A stretch of DNA of 59,400 nt, counting the filler, from Basidiobolus ranarum (Eukaryota): assembly GCA_040143965.1 (NCBI GenBank). It is 8 parts of 8 records of this genome, joined end to end, with 100 filler letters (N's around TTAATTAATTAA, not from the genome) between each part and the next. Parts side by side here need not be neighbours in the genome. Positions count along the whole stretch, not along the records: positions 29,782 to 37,113 come from JASJQH010001136.1; 7 more parts are not named here. One strand, 5' to 3'. Of the stretch, positions 7,359 to 56,899 are shown piece by piece. The stretch's first letter is position 1, and every line of letters starts with the position of its first letter. The notes beneath the pieces are model-generated. The model did no database searches and was not told where the DNA came from. It worked only from the letters and a program-made list of their open reading frames with translations. A program made the translations under genes and the position numbers.

Positions 7359-7458
7359 NNNNNNNNNNNNNNNNNNNNNNNNNNNNNNNNNNNNNNNNNN
7401 NNTTAATTAATTAANNNNNNNNNNNNNNNNNNNNNNNNNNNNNNNNNNNNNNNNNNNN
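7359..7458. other. Artificial contig linker
   Basis: N44-TTAATTAATTAA-N44, which places stops in all six frames. Confidence 0.99.
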
Positions 7459-14806: not shown

Positions 14807-14906
14807 NNNNNNNNNNNNNNNNNNNNNNNNNNNNNNNNNNNNNNNNNNNNTTAATTAATTAANNNNNNNNNNNNNNNNNNNNNNNNNNNNNNNNNNNNNN
14901 NNNNNN
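14807..14906. other. Artificial contig linker
   Basis: N44-TTAATTAATTAA-N44. Confidence 0.99.
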
Positions 14907-22249: not shown

Positions 22250-22349
22250 NNNNNNNNNNNNNNNNNNNNNNNNNNNNNNNNNNNNNNNNNNNNTTAATTA
22301 ATTAANNNNNNNNNNNNNNNNNNNNNNNNNNNNNNNNNNNNNNNNNNNN
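22250..22349. other. Artificial contig linker
   Basis: N44-TTAATTAATTAA-N44. Confidence 0.99.
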
Positions 22350-29681: not shown

Positions 29682-29781
29682 NNNNNNNNNNNNNNNNNNN
29701 NNNNNNNNNNNNNNNNNNNNNNNNNTTAATTAATTAANNNNNNNNNNNNNNNNNNNNNNNNNNNNNNNNNNNNNNNNNNNN
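29682..29781. other. Artificial contig linker
   Basis: N44-TTAATTAATTAA-N44. Confidence 0.99.
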
Positions 29782-30426
29782 CCCGACATCATAACTTACA
29801 ACACCTTGCTTAAGGGATATCTCATGCACAGTGAATTTGAGAAAAGAGATCAGGTCTATCAGGAAACCATCTCAACTTCACAGCCTGACATAATCACCTT
29901 TAATACGTTGATTGAGGGATACTCGGTGAGAACTTTAGATCAAGCAGTGGGATGGATTGGAGAAGTGTAAAGGCGAAACCTGGACCCAAATTGCAGCACG
30001 TACAATTCGATTATGAACAGCTATCTCAAAATCAATCGACCTCAGAAATCGTTGGAATATTACGAAGTCTTGAAGAGAATCCAACCAACTTACATCACCT
30101 ATGGCATTTTGATGAATTGTCATAGTTATTTGCGCAAACATCCCGAAGTAGTCTCCTTATGGTCCAAAGCCGTAGAGACGTTTCCTTTGTACACACTCAA
30201 TGGAGCCCTGTCAGTAGTACTAGACTCTTATGGATATCATCCCACTGCTAGCGAATTGCGTACATTCTGGTCGAATTAAAAGAGCGGGACTTTCCGTTCT
30301 TGGAAAACAATCCAAGTGTGTATATTGAAAGACTCTGTCATCTTGGGGATATCGCGTACAGCATCAAGGTATTTTGGACCGAGTGTAAGCAACGTAAATT
30401 AGAGCCTAGCGAGAAAACCGTCGAAA
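29782..30426 (+). pseudogene. Pentatricopeptide-repeat (PPR) protein pseudogene fragment
   Basis: PPR starts PDIITYNTLLKGY, PDIITFNTLIEGY, PNCSTYNSIMNSY, PTYITYGILMNCH. In-frame TAA at ~29968 and a frameshift at ~30275. Ends at LEPSEKTV. Confidence 0.85.
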
Positions 30427-30836
30427 ACCCCTATTTTTGCTTTCGGGAATGGCATGAAGGGAAGGGACTCATCAAAGATCAACGGGCATCAAGTAGGCCT
30501 AACTGGAAGCCTATATCGCCTCTTAAAGTGCCGAGAGAAAGAAAGAGGGCTTTTGGTTATATATGATGACGAATTTCGGACGTCAAAGGTAAAGTTGAAC
30601 AAAATGGCCTTTATTGTTATAAACTAATAACGTCTGTGAGTTAGGTTTGCCACTCCTGCCAGCAAGCAGACTTGACTCCTGCGTTTATCGGTCTAATTAG
30701 CGTCCTAGCTTGCCAAAGCTGTGGGATGATCTGGAACCGAGATGTAAATGCTGCGTAAAATATTTATGATATCTCTAATGAGATACTCAATGAACGAGTT
30801 CAACTACTTCCTTTTTGGCGTTCGCGCCACATTTAA
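30427..30836 (+). mobile_element. Fanzor (eukaryotic TnpB-like) nuclease C-terminal fragment with a 56-bp intron, pseudogenised
   Basis: Exon 30427-30588: TPIFAFGNGMKGRDSSKINGHQVGLTGSLYRLLKCREKERGLLVIYDDEFRTSK. Intron 30589-30644 (GTAAAG, CTAAT branch, TTAG). Exon 30645-30836: VCHSC...VLACQSCGMIWNRDVNAA*NIYDI. Confidence 0.85.
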
Positions 30837-31203
30837 TCGCTGTATCAAACACAGTTTTCACTCCTCCATCAGATATATCGACTATTTTTGATGTATTATT
30901 AATATCACATTACAGAAAACAATTGAAGTCCAAAGCGATTTGTGCACACTATAAAGCAAAATATAAGGTGTTGTGAAAGAAAAGCAAAGCAAAGCAAATT
31001 ACAATAAAATACATATACATGTCAAGTACGAATACACATCAAAATACTAGTGCACGGAGGAGCAGAAAAGTAAGTCAAAATTAGGAAGATACTATACGAA
31101 AGAGGATACTAGAACAAATACAAGAGCGAACCAAAATATAAGACTATCAGACAAAAAACTAAGACCACCTCACATAGTAAGAATAAAAGGGTTTCAAAGA
31201 GCA

Positions 31204-32277
31204 TCAAGTGCTGGAGCACCCTTTGATCAGGTGTCGATGCAAACCGTCTTTTCTTGAGAAATTCTTTTGACAGCTAGGGCATTGGTGGGGCCTTTCACCT
31301 TTATGTACCGTAGCTAGATGGCGACTCAAATCGTGTTTGCGACCAAATGATTTTGGACATTCAGGGCAGTCGAAAGGACGTGCCAACTTCGGGTCGTGTC
31401 CGCGTATGTGCACATTTAAATTGAATTTACGTGCAAAATGTAGTCCACATACATCGCATCCGTATCTTTTATCCTTGGATCCAGACGATTTAACTGAAGC
31501 TATATGAGCTACCGTCTCAAACTGCGAATGTGTTGTTGAAATCAACTGGTGTTCCTGACCATTGGATTGAAGGGAGCACTTTGTCGACTGCCTTTTTGCG
31601 TTGAAGGAAGATATTTCTTCTAATGGCGCGATTAATGCTGGGTGTTTATCTTCGCAAGAGATATCATCGTCGACATGGAATGAACCGCCTTTGCAATAAA
31701 GCGAAAAATCAAGCGAGGTGTGTGGAGTATTGTCTGGATGTATACTATTTGATCCAAAGGTACTCTGATCGAACTCTACTCTAGGAGTTAGGAATGGTGT
31801 AGATTGTACCGAATTGATATCGTAAGAATTGATTTGTGGTGTAGATAGTGTAGGCATTGAGTCTGGAGGATAAAATGGAGTCAAAGGAGAGTAGGGACTA
31901 AAAGGCTGTGCAAAGTTAATTTTTAGTTCGTGGTGTTGAGATGCGCAGGAATTCGTGAAAGACGTCATAAAATGCACGTCAGCAGAGGCTAACTGAGTCG
32001 CAGTTCTAGAGGTAAGTGAAGCATCGGATATAAATGAGGTTTGTGACGGAAGCTTTGGTTGTCTTCGAAATGTTGTAGTTTTTGACGATATCTTTGAGGT
32101 AACAGGCTGAGAACCAAGTTCTGTCTCATGATCGAACAACGTAAAGTCGTTGTTAAAAGTAGGATGACCCGAAATTTTGCTTTTGCGTATAACTGTGGTG
32201 TTGTTTAGTTTACTGCACATATTCGTAGGATTTGTGTTAGCTGATATTGTAAAAAAACGGTCATCAAAAGGCACCAT
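31204..32277 (-). CDS. C2H2 zinc-finger transcription factor (three C-terminal fingers), intronless
   Basis: CDVC...HIRGH, CPEC...HLATVH, CPSC...H with GERP linker. Start uncertain; the frame is open to 32460. Confidence 0.88.
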   Translation of the reverse strand: MVPFDDRFFTISANTNPTNMCSKLNNTTVIRKSKISGHPTFNNDFTLFDHETELGSQPVTSKISSKTTTFRRQPKLPSQTSFISDASLTSRTATQLASADVHFMTSFTNSCASQHHELKINFAQPFSPYSPLTPFYPPDSMPTLSTPQINSYDINSVQSTPFLTPRVEFDQSTFGSNSIHPDNTPHTSLDFSLYCKGGSFHVDDDISCEDKHPALIAPLEEISSFNAKRQSTKCSLQSNGQEHQLISTTHSQFETVAHIASVKSSGSKDKRYGCDVCGLHFARKFNLNVHIRGHDPKLARPFDCPECPKSFGRKHDLSRHLATVHKGERPHQCPSCQKNFSRKDGLHRHLIKGCSST

Positions 32278-32907
32278 GCTCAGAGAGCGTGAAGGTGAGT
32301 AAATACTTGAGTCCAGTAGGGAATAGAGAAAACAAACGTGGCAATAACAGTCTTGTGTGTACAAAGTCAAAATAGAATAAGTATCAGTCGATCCGGAGAT
32401 ACGAGGCCATTTAAACAAATTGACAAGTTTTGACATTCGATTGGCTAGACCCATATTCAAGAATTGGGTGACAGTGGAATAAGAGATAGTTAAAGGTGCA
32501 TATAGAGATATTGAGGCATTGAGACATTACTAAACATAGTATCAAATCATTCACCTTTCAAAAATGAAGTCAATCAGATCAGTAATATTTGTAAGAACAT
32601 CCAATAATAAACAGTGACACCATGTCTTATACTCTTCCACCATACAAAGGTTAATATTGTTATTGAGGCTCTATGTGACCATTATTATCGCATGATCTGA
32701 CCCCGTTATTGATGGACTGAATGTATCGAGATGGTAAGTGAATGTATATCTATTTTACTTTATTTTGATTATTAGGCTTAACAAATTGTTTATTGTGAAC
32801 TCACAAATCATCGCAAATTTCCCAACTGTTTTTATTTCGACCTTGATGAGCAAATATAGAAAAAACCAATTACTGTATCTTTCACAAACATAGAATTTAG
32901 CTCTCTA

Positions 32908-34152
32908 ATGATGACCAGCGAGAAAAAACGAAAGTTTGAAAACGGCGAGTATCCTCAGAAAACAAACGTTAAAACACCAAAGATCCCTGGTCAAAAATTT
33001 TATGCAGTTCATCGCGGGAGACAACCTGGAATTTATCACACATGGTTATAAAACTTCCAATTCTTGTTGAATCTTTAAGTAATTTATTAACGTGCTAGAT
33101 CCAACTATCATATATTCAGGCCAGAATGCCAGGCGCAGATCCTTGGATATACTGGCGCCATTTATAAGAAATTTGATTCCCAAGCAGAGGCAGAAGATTT
33201 TGTTAAGAATGGTTGGCGTGCCAAAGGTTTAAAGCCCAAAATTAAAGGTACCTGCTAGTTCTACCTTAAGTTGCAGATTTTCTTGTGTGGCCTATTCTTA
33301 TCCAGACCATTTACAGAACAAATCAAGGCTCCCCCAGTGCCTGTGGAAGAAGATGAATGTAAGGTCACTTTAAATACTGTTATTACATAAGCGCTCTTTT
33401 TCTTGCTTATCTTGCAATCTTAACTATGATGACTGAACCAGTCGACCTAATTTTTATTTATTAAAGCTGACTATACCATTGTATATACTGACGGCAGTAG
33501 CCGCGGAAATGGTAAGGACCACTGTCGTGCTGGAGTTGGTGTTTATTTCGGCGAAAAAGATCCTAGGTACATATGTTTTTGCTTTATCTCGCGATGTATA
33601 TGTTCTAAGCCTTAATAGAAATGTAAGCGAGCGATTGCTGGGAAAGCAAACAAATCAGCGTGCCGAGGTTACGGTATGCCATCTTTTTCTTAGAGCTTTG
33701 ACCAATAACCATTTCTCAACGACATTTCTTGGTTCAGGCAGCCATTAGAGCAATTGAAAAAGTCGGAGATGATAAGCAACCTTTAGAGATCCGCACTGAT
33801 AGCCAATATTTGATTAAGGGTATCTAAATCGTTTATGTAGCTATATATTAATTCATTGTATTGAATGATGACACTCCTCAGCTATAACCTCTTGGATTCA
33901 TAACTGGAAGAAGCGTGGATGGGTTACTGTCGAAGATAAAAGCGTTGAAAACAAAGATTTATTTATGAAACTCGATGAGTTGATAAACCAAAGACCGGGT
34001 CCTGTCCGCTTTGTAAGGTTTTCTAAATTCTTCGAATATTGAAACAGCTCACATACTATTTGTAATCTTAGAAACATGTCAAGGCACACATTGGAATCCC
34101 TGGCAACGAAGCGGCCGATATGTTAGCAAATGCCGGAGCTACACTAAATTAG
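32908..34152 (+). CDS. RNH1: Ribonuclease H1, multi-exon (a tiny upstream ATG exon at 32731 is possible)
   Basis: Hybrid-binding domain [16 protein letters not shown]. Catalytic motifs [43 protein letters not shown]. Confidence 0.93.
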
Positions 34153-34838
34153 ATTGACAGTACGTTCACACTCTCTTGGTATTATCACTACTCGCCAGTC
34201 TGCATTATATTCCAATGTACTCCATCGATAGCTCGGAATTTGATGTAAATAAAACTATTTCCAGTATATATTTGAAACAATTTGCGTGGCGGTCAGCTCA
34301 AACACGAAATTATCCGATTTATGGTTTTTCATGATGGACTGGGATCTTGCACCTGTATTATGATGCCATGTGATCATTGATTTTCGTCTCTTTATATTCT
34401 TTTTCCATTATCTTTATTGTGGCCAATCATTATAATGAGAATTTTACTATCGCATACGGAACTTAATTGCCATCAATCCGTGAGGAAGAAATATTTAGGT
34501 CCAACCAGAAGGGATTAGTTGATTCATCATGTTCCAAGAATTTGTGGCCTACTATAATTTGTCAAAACATCGCATATTCTCTCACTTTACTCCTTTTCTC
34601 TAATCTTGTATTTTACACTGGAATTTTTACCATCCTTGACACAAACATTCCTATTCCATTCTGCACTTTTCTTTGACGGGCTCAACACGTTCATTACTAC
34701 ATTCGATAGATGTCTATTTTTTGAAAGCTCCCTATTGAAACACCACAATCTTTGATCAGTCGCCAGTTTCTCTGTTAACCTATTTCTGGTTACCAATTGT
34801 GTCTTTTATTAGTCACCATCTTTACTCAAATTTTCACA

Positions 34839-35510
34839 ATGTTATTCCAAAAATGCAATAATAGTTCCCTTAATGGGCAAAAGAAAAGTACTGCTTCCAC
34901 TTCCCCTTGTATTTCAATAGCCCCTCTTTTCCCCCGTCTTACAAAAACCTTTCTTGGATGTAAAGAAGCTTCAAAAATCAAAGGCTGTGAGATGCCTCAT
35001 AGTTGTGCACTGGCCCCCACGCTGTCTCGCCTATGGCGCAATTTATTCCCCAAAGGGATTTCTCCCATGCAACGATTATATGCGGAGCCTTATAATTCTG
35101 TAAACAAGTCAAATTACTTGCATAATGTGGCAGAATCCACCGGTTTGGCTGCGCTTGGTCATAATCATCTCGGATTTACCGCTCAAAGACTCTACCAAAT
35201 TAATCCGACTTCTTCTCTTAATCCTACTCAACACAACTCCAGTGAGCATGCTTCTGAGTATGACTTTTTTGCACATAATAGAGAGAATGCAGATATTCCA
35301 TGGGAGGATTTCCAATTATATGATTCCGATTCTGAATCGGACAGCGGTAATGAAAGCTCACTATTTGCACCCATGTTTGCACCACTAAGTGAGGTACATC
35401 AAGCTCGCCCAATCCACGAAGAAAAATGGGAGAGACACAGTCGCACATCTAGTTCGAACCCGGAAACCGAACAAGGTAATAGAAGAAGAGGATTTTTACA
35501 TACCGATTGA
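34839..35510 (+). CDS. Hypothetical protein
   Basis: 224-codon ATG-initiated ORF with an acidic/Ser stretch. No recognised motif. Confidence 0.4.
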   Translation: MLFQKCNNSSLNGQKKSTASTSPCISIAPLFPRLTKTFLGCKEASKIKGCEMPHSCALAPTLSRLWRNLFPKGISPMQRLYAEPYNSVNKSNYLHNVAESTGLAALGHNHLGFTAQRLYQINPTSSLNPTQHNSSEHASEYDFFAHNRENADIPWEDFQLYDSDSESDSGNESSLFAPMFAPLSEVHQARPIHEEKWERHSRTSSSNPETEQGNRRRGFLHTD

Positions 35511-36266
35511 GGCAGCTTGAATTTTTTGTATTGTTCGGGATTCACTGACTCTAAAACTTCTAATATTTGATTTATTCTACGTTGTACGCAGTTATTCCCA
35601 AATTTCTTTTTTGATTTTCAAAGCATATAGTTTTGCTGTGTTTAATTGTCCTTTGGTCAGTTTCCGGTCCTTTTACATTTAAGAAATTTTATCAACATAA
35701 CACAAAATATATATACATAAATATGTAGTAAACCATTATGTTTAGGGAATACTGGCTTTTCCTTTCGTTTTCATCGATCACGAGTTGTCATTTTGTGGTC
35801 ATTCTACCAAATAAACATACTATTTGATCAACCTTCTCGCGTGCTCCAATCACACACATTGATGAGAAATAGCCTTGTTGACTTAATGTCCATGTATACC
35901 AAGGGTTGGGCGTGACTGAGGTTTGGTGCAATGATTTTCGTATATTTAGCAGAGTTACGTGTTGTCGAACACATTGAATTGACCAGTTTGTAACATTTGC
36001 TGTCACATATAATACTGGATGTCATAAGATCGACAATACGAAACATTAGAGCCGCTGAAATATCCCCTACCCCTTTTGCGCTTACCTGAAACGTAACCAT
36101 CTTCATTTTTCTGACGTGAAAGCCTACTGAGCTGCCAACTCTTTCGTTCTTTTTCGTAAGCATAGACCTTGACTCTTAAAAACCAAGGTGATATCGACTC
36201 TTTTTGTTTGCAAGTCCGTTAGACCCTTATCGCTAATAGAAACTGCTCTGCTCAATTTTGTTTAAT

Positions 36267-37113
36267 ATGCCTACGCATAACCCCACCACACATCCCCCAA
36301 ATCCCATTTCTAACACAACAGAGGAAGTCACGAAACCTGATAAATACACCATACTTGAAAATCCGGAGTTCAGCAGTTCAGATCCTAATGATCTAACCAC
36401 TTTGAGGATAGATAAAGTCAGACTGACAGAGGAATTGGAGACTATTAAGGTAAAATTACTCAAGGAAAGAGACGAGCGCTTAAGACTTCACTTTGAAAAC
36501 GAAAGGGCTCAGAAACGCTCGCAAGAGCTTGAAGAATTGTTACTTTCTAGAGAAAACCGAATAACTTCCCTTGAAAATGATTTGAAAGTTCTAAACAGCA
36601 AGTATGTGGACGAGATTGAGAAGGTTTCGGAATTAAATTTGGCGAAACAACTGGTGGAAGGAGAGTACGTGGAGTTAAGTAGCTCCTTGTTTGAGCAGGC
36701 TAATGGCATGGTCGCTTCTGAAGCTAGACAAAGATTTGAGCTTGAAAGAGTAAATAAAGCCCTGGAGAGTCAACTGGCTGAGATCAGAGAGCGGTTGAGT
36801 AATGAGGTTTCCCAATTAAGAGAGTTGAAAGAAAAATTACAGATCAGTACAAACGTGCAACCAAACTCGAATACAGTTAAATGCTCAAAGTGTGGTGACG
36901 AGGACATTGGTTTGGGCATCAACCTAAGCCTCAATCCAAGTGGAGGTGATGCTGACGAAATGGACATATATTCAAGATTATTGAACGAGTTCGAGGCATT
37001 TTTAGCACGCGGCAGTGATCCTACTATGAATCGAATTTACGGAATTCCTTATATGAAACGATGCTTAGAGGAAGACATAGAGCCTTGTTTAAGACTAGGT
37101 AATTATTCAAACT
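36267..37113 (+). CDS. SEC2: Rab GEF Sec2-like protein, 3' truncated at a linker
   Basis: Coiled coil with ELSSSLFEQANGMVASEAR, plus PYMKRCLEEDIEPCLR. Confidence 0.88.
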
Positions 37114-37213
37114 NNNNNNNNNNNNNNNNNNNNNNNNNNNNNNNNNNNNNNNNNNNNTTAATTAATTAANNNNNNNNNNNNNNNNNNNNNNNNNNNNNNN
37201 NNNNNNNNNNNNN
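37114..37213. other. Artificial contig linker
   Basis: N44-TTAATTAATTAA-N44. Confidence 0.99.
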
Positions 37214-44544: not shown

Positions 44545-44644
44545 NNNNNNNNNNNNNNNNNNNNNNNNNNNNNNNNNNNNNNNNNNNNTTAATTAATTAA
44601 NNNNNNNNNNNNNNNNNNNNNNNNNNNNNNNNNNNNNNNNNNNN
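44545..44644. other. Artificial contig linker
   Basis: N44-TTAATTAATTAA-N44. Confidence 0.99.
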
Positions 44645-51974: not shown

Positions 51975-52074
51975 NNNNNNNNNNNNNNNNNNNNNNNNNN
52001 NNNNNNNNNNNNNNNNNNTTAATTAATTAANNNNNNNNNNNNNNNNNNNNNNNNNNNNNNNNNNNNNNNNNNNN
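51975..52074. other. Artificial contig linker
   Basis: N44-TTAATTAATTAA-N44. Confidence 0.99.
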
Positions 52075-55709: not shown

Positions 55710-56664
55710 TTATTGTGCATTCAAAAGGTGATGAAAGCTGTATTCATAGGGTGTTAAGTCTAGTGCTTTTGATGAATTTCTTCGAGTATGAATGTATTGA
55801 GAATTAATCAAGATTTAGACTACTTTGACTAACTTTGATTGGGGCTCACAAAATGATTTTCCTCTATACTTTCCTGCTATAATGCTACATCTCTTTTGGA
55901 ATCCGAAGTTATGTTCTACTCTTGCTCTACAATGGGAAAAAATGCTATTTTAAAGGTTTGGCTCTCTGTAAATATCACTCTTCTGGGTCTCTTGGTAGCT
56001 GTGACACATCCTATCCTCATGTATTCTTCCCCAAAATATGCCAAGTCAGCCATAGTGTTCTCATATCTTACAAATGTTGAATGCTTCCAATCCAAAGCCT
56101 TTAGTCATGATGTCTGCCTGGATATGGCCCACTAGACCAAACAAGATTTCCTTCTAAATATTTCAAAGCCTGGAGCTTTACACAGAGAGCTTTGTATTTG
56201 CAAGAATACAATAGCATTTGGTTGCTTTTGGGCATGTTGATTCTCATAGGAAATGTGTCACAAATACTTCTGCTATGAACACTGTTGGAAAATATGCCAG
56301 GAAATGCAAGGAATTTAGAATCCACAAATCTTTTGTCCCAGGCACCTTCAACATCATTCATCACTGAAGCTAGATAACTCTCACTTACTTGAAGCCCTGT
56401 ATCAATGCTTCTCCCACTTTCCCTACCATTAATAGAGCACTGAAATTTGATCAAACAATTGTTTTTGTAGTAACAAAGCAAATTTACTAGCTGCTTCCTG
56501 ATTGATATTAGAGTAAGTGAGCCACAGTATCTCCCAAATGTAGCTTCTAAGGTGGTGATAGGAAAGCCACTAGTTGCAGTTGGATTAATCAAGAATGACC
56601 GTTTAGAGTTGATGATACTAATCTTGTATTGGGCTGGCACAATATAGATTGATCTGGCTTGCAT
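55710..56664 (-). mobile_element. IS5/PIF-Harbinger (ISL2EU-like, DDE_Tnp_4-type) transposase pseudogene
   Basis: ICDTFPMRI..P...Q.LLYS.KYK...VKLQ....G.LVWSSGPYPGRHHD, then across stops and frameshifts MADLAYFG, TATKRPRR..TESQ and NSIFSHCRARVEHNFGFQKR.SII.GKYRG. Confidence 0.8.
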
Positions 56665-56899
56665 ACAATATATATATAAAAGAACTTCAAATATAATAGT
56701 AAAATTCCCTACATTCTGTATAATAAAATCTCCATTTGAATTAATTATCCTAATTATTACATTTATACCTAATTGCCCAGAATTTATATAATAAAATATT
56801 ATTTTATTTCAATAATAAACCAATATTATAAAAAGATCCTTAACTCTTATTGAAACCAATAAAGTCTAACATTGTAGATATATATGGTAGCTAGAAATC

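Follow-up and report, generated by a model that had tools for sequence, protein, structure and literature searches.

A non-functional, intron-bearing relic of the Fanzor nuclease family in eukaryotic DNA

Described Fanzor and TnpB systems

Fanzors that have been tested are omegaRNA-guided RuvC endonucleases carried by transposons, as set out in passages of two reports (PMC10530073 and PMC11423790). In Fanzors and in a subset of TnpB proteins, the canonical RuvC-II glutamate is replaced by glycine or proline and an alternative glutamate lies about 45 residues downstream; in the mimivirus enzyme this glutamate is essential (E467A), according to the same part of PMC10530073. Fungal Fanzors, the introns of their genes and the rearrangement of their catalytic site are already in the literature, as excerpts of these two reports attest. 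Structures are available for two fungal Fanzor1 proteins, SpuFz1 of Spizellomyces punctatus (PDB 8gkh) and PpFz1 of Parasitella parasitica (PDB 9cf0; described in sections of PMC11423790).

Here we analyse a window (the whole stretch of DNA studied, 59,400 nucleotides) in which an earlier note had read a fragment of an intron-containing Fanzor gene. The fragment has the same C-terminal layout as SpuFz1 and PpFz1: a RuvC-II strand of the Gly type, a ..DEFRTS.. glutamate directly before CxxC...CxxC, then WNRD and RP..F.R. Like the fungal Fanzor1 genes, it lies in a eukaryotic host with spliceosomal introns. Unlike SpuFz1 and PpFz1, it comprises only ~120 of 600-900 residues, lacks the WED, REC and RuvC-I regions and carries a premature stop, and the loop of its zinc ribbon has 18 residues, whereas PpFz1 has long insertions there.

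The nearest full-length relatives are uncharacterised Fanzor-like proteins of Mucorales: P0028 (Mucor flavus MFLAVUS_002581), P0030, P0036 and P0116. P0028 and other Mucorales proteins have PF07282, as the fragment does, but in the Mucorales proteins, in contrast to the copy in the window, the first 500+ residues are present, and a DPG-type RuvC-I motif lies among them. Closest of all are two short predicted proteins, P0003 (100 aa) and P0004 (128 aa), which cover the same C-terminal region. More distant members of the superfamily, namely ISDra2 TnpB (PDB 8exa and 8h1j), LaTranC (9jfq) and the mimivirus Fanzor2 L79 (9b0l), have the TNB zinc ribbon and RuvC-III in common with the fragment, and the TnpB2 subset, with its rearranged RuvC-II, has an alternative glutamate like that of the fragment, as described in part of PMC10530073. 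TnpB, LaTranC and L79 are, however, intron-less proteins of about 400-575 aa from prokaryotes or viruses, whereas the fragment is intron-bearing, eukaryotic and kin to long fungal proteins.

Exon-intron structure and homology

By sequence homology, two plus-strand frames joined over a 56-bp GT..AG intron (Table 1) encode the last ~120 residues of a nuclease of the TnpB/Fanzor type. The translation of exon 1, ...PIFAFGNGMKG...DDEFRTSK, contains the RuvC-II strand with glycine for the canonical glutamate (FAFGNG), a helical linker and the alternative catalytic glutamate (DDEFRTSK). Exon 2 reads VCHSC-x18-CQSC...WNRDVNAA, that is, a CxxC-x18-CxxC zinc ribbon (the TNB domain) and the RuvC-III motif. 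The intron carries a CTAAT-like branch motif and has a G+C content of 30%, compared with 44-46% in the flanking exons. Because it ends with an in-frame TAG and imposes a frame shift of 2, only splicing can join the two frames.

Table 1 Features of the window, with positions counted along its full length
Feature	Position	Strand	Description
Spacers (seven)	7359-7458, 14807-14906, 22250-22349, 29682-29781, 37114-37213, 44545-44644, 51975-52074		identical, N44-TTAATTAATTAA-N44
PPR-like (pentatricopeptide repeat) frame	29782-30422	+	Pfam and ESM-Atlas; context, outside the Fanzor gene
Exon 1	30403-30588	+	62 codons; homology from about 30418
Intron	30589-30644	+	56 bp, phase 0, GTAAAG...TTAG
Exon 2 to premature stop	30645-30755	+	37 codons
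Premature TAA	30756-30758	+	within the RuvC-III motif (NAA-stop-NI)
C-terminal tail past the premature stop	30759-30836	+	25 codons and terminal TAA (30834-30836), in frame
C2H2 protein	31207-32526	-	next gene downstream of the fragment
RNase H1 gene	32860-34150	+	Cauli_VI N-terminal domain and RNase_H; about seven short GT..AG introns
Open frame with weak DDE_Tnp_4 match	56104-56808	-	235 codons; on a different stretch from the fragment

Exon 2 alone matched Pfam PF07282 (Cas12f1-like_TNB) with 26.9 bits (E 5.4e-6), for a gathering score of 26.3 bits, and reached 30.8 bits (E 3.3e-7; positions 31-60 of the 60 in the profile) when the stop was read as X. Among PDB sequences it matched LaTranC, Cas12m and the mimivirus TnpB-like protein L79, with NRD.NAA.NI aligned. 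Exon 1 alone had no match in Pfam or PDB, and word-indexed protein searches returned none either for exon 1 or, among longer proteins, for exon 2. The ESM-Atlas neighbours of exon 1 were uninformative: viral fragments without a family came top, and a cluster bearing PF07282 stood at rank 10 (0.88).

An exhaustive HMMER search with exon 2 against 1.84 billion representative proteins returned 26 proteins at E<=1e-3, 23 of them true relatives, in which the C, W, D and N columns are invariant. The other three were rejected: P0002 (3672 aa) is an SprB/Ig/PKD adhesin-like protein with a repeat-driven match, and the matches of P0008 and P0010 were driven by internal repeats. PF07282 was found in all six of the short relatives that were scanned (P0003, P0004, P0006, P0013, P0017 and P0019). 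In several short relatives, the sequence continues upstream into a counterpart of exon 1 and runs uninterrupted through the junction (..TS(K/R/Q)VC..). A separate, alignment-based search for longer proteins gave 114 proteins of 419-1090 aa, led by Mucor flavus P0028 (657 aa) and Rhizopus microsporus P0030 and P0036, with Rhizomucor pusillus P0116 (863 aa) and Klebsormidium nitens P0120 also among the top relatives; the nearest full-length relatives span 419-863 aa.

As the relatives were gathered with exon 2 only, exon 1 provides an independent test of the assignment. Alone, it matched seven of the retrieved proteins in a local blastp search (3e-12 to 8e-6), including P0017 (3e-12), P0019 (6e-11) and P0028 (8e-11, residues 533-587 of 657), and on the relatives its match sits directly before the region matched by exon 2. 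The spliced peptide aligned with residues 533-644 of P0028 in one alignment that spans the splice junction (41% identity, 112 aligned positions); its identity was 54% to P0004 over 85 aligned positions and 50% to P0003 over 105, and exon 2 was 57% identical to P0003 and P0004. On a profile of 14 relatives, exon 1 fell on positions 31-84 (42.3 bits) and exon 2 on positions 85-147 (68.8 bits), with no gap or overlap, and the spliced peptide scored 126.8 bits. When all 2515 six-frame pieces of the window, each of at least 15 aa, were searched with this profile, only the two exons matched (E 1.4e-12 for exon 1 and 1.7e-14 for exon 2); the next best piece had an E of 2.3. Since the exons occupy adjoining profile positions, their junction was a phase-0 splice site in the ancestral gene.

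Every sequence feature described in the earlier note is present, and several of its proposals are borne out by these results. The 56-bp, phase-0 intron that it had placed between the two frames is present, and relatives run gapless across the junction (..EFRTS-x-VC..C). The C-terminal TnpB/Fanzor signature that it had recognised is upheld by the PF07282 score and by matches of the family profile A1 to Fanzor1, Fanzor2 and TnpB structures, and the profile comparison that it had called for did not place the spliced peptide outside the TnpB/Fanzor superfamily. A resemblance of AFG.G... to fungal Fanzors, proposed there, is matched by the alignments of exon 1 itself to Mucor flavus P0028 and others. 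The start given there, position 30427, is in line with homology that begins at about 30418-30424.

The reading of DE.RTS as the RuvC-II glutamate was right in the Fanzor sense, that is, as the alternative glutamate described in a portion of PMC10530073. Gly15 (FAFG) and Glu57 (DDEF) fall in the conserved columns 'afGdg' and 'deFrTS' of the profile and are 42 residues apart; this spacing fits the rearranged RuvC-II published in that portion. For the RuvC-III aspartate, the motif WNRDVNAA lines up with the W, D and N columns that are invariant in the 23 relatives, and with LaTranC, Cas12m and L79.

Among solved structures, profile A1 matched the prokaryotic TnpB-like protein LaTranC best (1.5e-8), followed by the Fanzor1 of Parasitella parasitica (1.2e-6), mimivirus L79 (Fanzor2; 4.1e-6), the Fanzor1 of Spizellomyces punctatus (1e-5), Cas12m (7.2e-5) and ISDra2 TnpB (6e-3), so that Fanzor1 and Fanzor2 structures score similarly. 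The sole PDB match of P0028 was SpuFz1 (1.6e-8), over the RuvC-I region and the C-terminal tail, and the RP..F.R tail is common to both Fanzor1 structures. We therefore call the fragment Fanzor1-type on the strength of its nearest full-length relatives rather than of a tree. Its setting is eukaryotic, with the 56-bp GT..AG intron and with mitofilin, Pan3, Sec2p and an RNase H1 with several short introns as neighbours. By homology with the tested Fanzors described in parts of PMC10530073 and PMC11423790, its intact ancestors would have been omegaRNA-guided RuvC endonucleases carried by transposons.

All 23 relatives of exon 2 (within P0003-P0027) are short predicted proteins of 49-238 aa that hold only the C-terminal part of a Fanzor; degeneration is plain to see in several of them. 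It seems that decayed pieces of the Fanzor C-terminus are common in the source genomes, or that they are commonly called as genes.

Truncation and inactivation

On a 617-position profile built from 11 full-length relatives, the two exons fall on positions 497-552 and 552-593, and the fragment thus represents the last ~20% of a full-length protein. Positions 1-496, RuvC-I included, had no match among the 2515 six-frame pieces of the window (next best E 6.7). A DPG-type RuvC-I motif is visible in P0028, P0029 and P0116. Searches of the window with 137 relatives (tblastn) gave nothing outside 30403-30833 better than E 0.007, and neither tblastn nor blastn found a second copy within its 59 kb. The suggestion of the earlier note that intact relatives with their own TAM and omegaRNA may exist in this genome finds no support in the window.

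The premature TAA cuts the RuvC-III motif three codons past the asparagine, at a position where the relatives mostly have lysine in the aligned columns. The tail beyond it still aligns with the tails of relatives (the NI..I....RP..F.R region), here degraded to LLPFWRS: the alignment to LaTranC passes the stop, P0003 covers query residues 1-60 and the profile alignment extends to position 147. As WED, REC and RuvC-I (~500 residues) are absent and the TAA lies within RuvC-III, no nuclease can be made from this copy. The earlier note had likewise judged the copy dead, and both of its grounds hold, the N-terminal ~80% having no match anywhere in the window and the TAA being present at 30756.

What survives is in good condition. 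That note had also remarked on a single stop and kept CpGs; there is indeed one stop in 124 codons, and the fragment has 20 CpGs, with an observed/expected ratio of 1.01 compared with 0.66 in the whole window. The four zinc-binding cysteines, the glutamate and the aspartate are all kept. The good state of these motifs suggests that the loss is not ancient, and preservation this unusual could reflect either a very recent break or some constraint. We also observed that CpA is low in 30403-30836, with an observed/expected ratio of 0.67 compared with 1.09-1.17 in the stretch and the window, although at 434 bp this is a small sample.

The fragment is, then, a genuine but ordinary, non-functional relic of a described family; it cannot be an RNA-guided nuclease, and it matters little in itself. 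It does illustrate how a Fanzor relic can be recognised in short, split frames that ORF-based annotation passes over, and it marks the genome as a past host of Fanzor1-type elements. The genome as a whole might hold a nuclease that is intact, possibly editable and shares about 40-57% identity with those known.

Surroundings and probable origin

Seven spacers cut the window into eight stretches of 7358, 7348, 7343, 7332, 7332, 7331, 7330 and 7326 bases, in falling order of size. As the window consists of separate stretches joined together, features are not to be linked across the spacers. Its DNA is eukaryotic, probably from a Mucoromycota-like fungus, with ~37.5% G+C, and holds ordinary cellular genes (copper amine oxidase, Duc1, cation efflux, mitofilin, Pan3, CN hydrolase, C2H2 protein, RNase H1 and Sec2p). 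The fragment is on the stretch from 29782 to 37113 (~7.3 kb), ~640 bp from its left end, and a scan of the open frames of this stretch gave PPR, C2H2, RNase H1, Sec2p or no family; none was a transposase.

Immediately upstream, a PPR-like frame is cut by the left end of the stretch. Pfam PPR_2, PPR_1 and PPR matches cover 29782-29970 and 29971-30276; a TAA interrupts the frame at 29968-29970, and the frame changes near 30260-30280. The part from 30252 to 30422 has no Pfam match, and its ESM-Atlas look-alikes are PPR clusters at 0.93-0.95, which we take as a lead only. This frame is either a pseudogene or poor sequence near the end of the stretch. It runs up to the point where Fanzor homology begins, on the same strand and in another frame, which suggests that two damaged genes were brought together by a deletion or rearrangement. 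Downstream of the fragment, no continuation of PPR was found by Pfam on 30794-30973 or 31051-31254. For an omegaRNA, there was no Rfam match within 29782-32000, and the folding of 30700-31000 was no better than that of shuffled sequences (z -0.46). No terminal repeats or transposon ends were seen around the fragment, where the only repeats were two-copy matches of 14-24 nt.

Very probably, then, the fragment is the remnant of a 5'-truncated, inactivated Fanzor1-type gene of which only the last two exons survive; these encode a RuvC-II segment of the rearranged type, the TNB domain with its zinc ribbon, and RuvC-III. The parent element may once have been adjacent to or inside the PPR-like gene, and a deletion or rearrangement would have fused the PPR frame, cut short at its 3' end, to the Fanzor gene, cut short at its 5' end. 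Such a history would be illusory if the gene were intact in the organism and both the truncation and the stop were artefacts of a fragmented or chimeric draft assembly. The eight ~7.3-kb pieces, falling in size from 7358 to 7326 as if short contigs had been sorted by size, leave room for this idea, as do the proximity of the fragment to a piece end, where a mis-join or poor sequence is possible, and the second in-frame TAA and the frame change, beside an A-run, in the PPR-like frame. Yet the same piece carries long open frames (440 codons for the C2H2 protein, 291 for the Sec2p-like protein, and the RNase H1 exons), the TAA is a base substitution rather than a homopolymer length error, and the PPR-like reading reaches the Fanzor homology on the same strand, with no room for ~1.6 kb of upstream exons; we consider an artefact improbable. 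There is a similarly small chance that the fragment is a captured or shuffled piece within a different mobile element, for example a chimera of the Helitron or Pack type that brought PPR and Fanzor sequence side by side. Two unrelated damaged gene pieces do follow each other head to tail on the same strand and meet sharply at ~30400-30424, the retained intron implies copying as DNA and not from mRNA, and Fanzors are associated with various transposons, Helitrons included, in the account given in part of PMC10530073. Against capture, the surroundings show neither terminal repeats nor other repeat structure beyond the short two-copy matches, the window has no second copy, no transposase or helicase was found on the stretch, and the PPR frame is cut by the left end of the piece.

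Two further explanations turn on the short relatives. The nearest relatives in the library of 1.84 billion proteins are almost all C-terminal-only (49-238 aa), and for this reason one could propose that a Mucoromycota Fanzor lineage systematically makes or keeps 3'-retaining, 5'-truncated copies, the locus being one member of the class and not random debris. Such copies might arise if copying begins at the 3' end, which bears the omegaRNA, or they might reflect a function of the 3' RNA or of a mini-protein limited to the zinc ribbon, for instance the damping of active Fanzors; we give this proposal a slim chance. Hardly credible, in our judgement, is the narrower idea that this copy is retained for a putative mini-protein of ~82 residues, linker plus zinc ribbon, from the ATG at 30451 (MKG...), which might for example interfere with active Fanzors. 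Its motifs are well kept, P0003 begins at the equivalent methionine and the 23 short relatives in the library cover the same C-terminal region, but P0003 and P0014 lack some of the zinc-binding cysteines, P0007 and P0011 drift out of frame-like sequence, and degenerate short proteins are what gene finders yield on decayed copies. Moreover, a 63-aa C-terminal query favours short subjects, and the stop removes part of RuvC-III and the conserved tail. The remnant of a truncated, inactivated gene is accordingly the reading that we prefer.

An alternative genetic code in which TAA is a sense codon, prompted by the TAA codons in the PPR and Fanzor frames, was rejected: frames in the standard code reach 555 codons, and under table 6 frames opened only to the extent that the removal of two stops gives in any case. 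The sole transposase-like match in the window, on another stretch, is a weak one to DDE_Tnp_4 (Harbinger/PIF-type transposase; E 1.6e-4, 21.8 bits, under the cut-off of 24.8). The RNase H1 gene serves as a reference within the window for the intron style of the host; its introns, read by eye, measure ~55-110 bp, a size similar to that of the 56-bp intron in the fragment.
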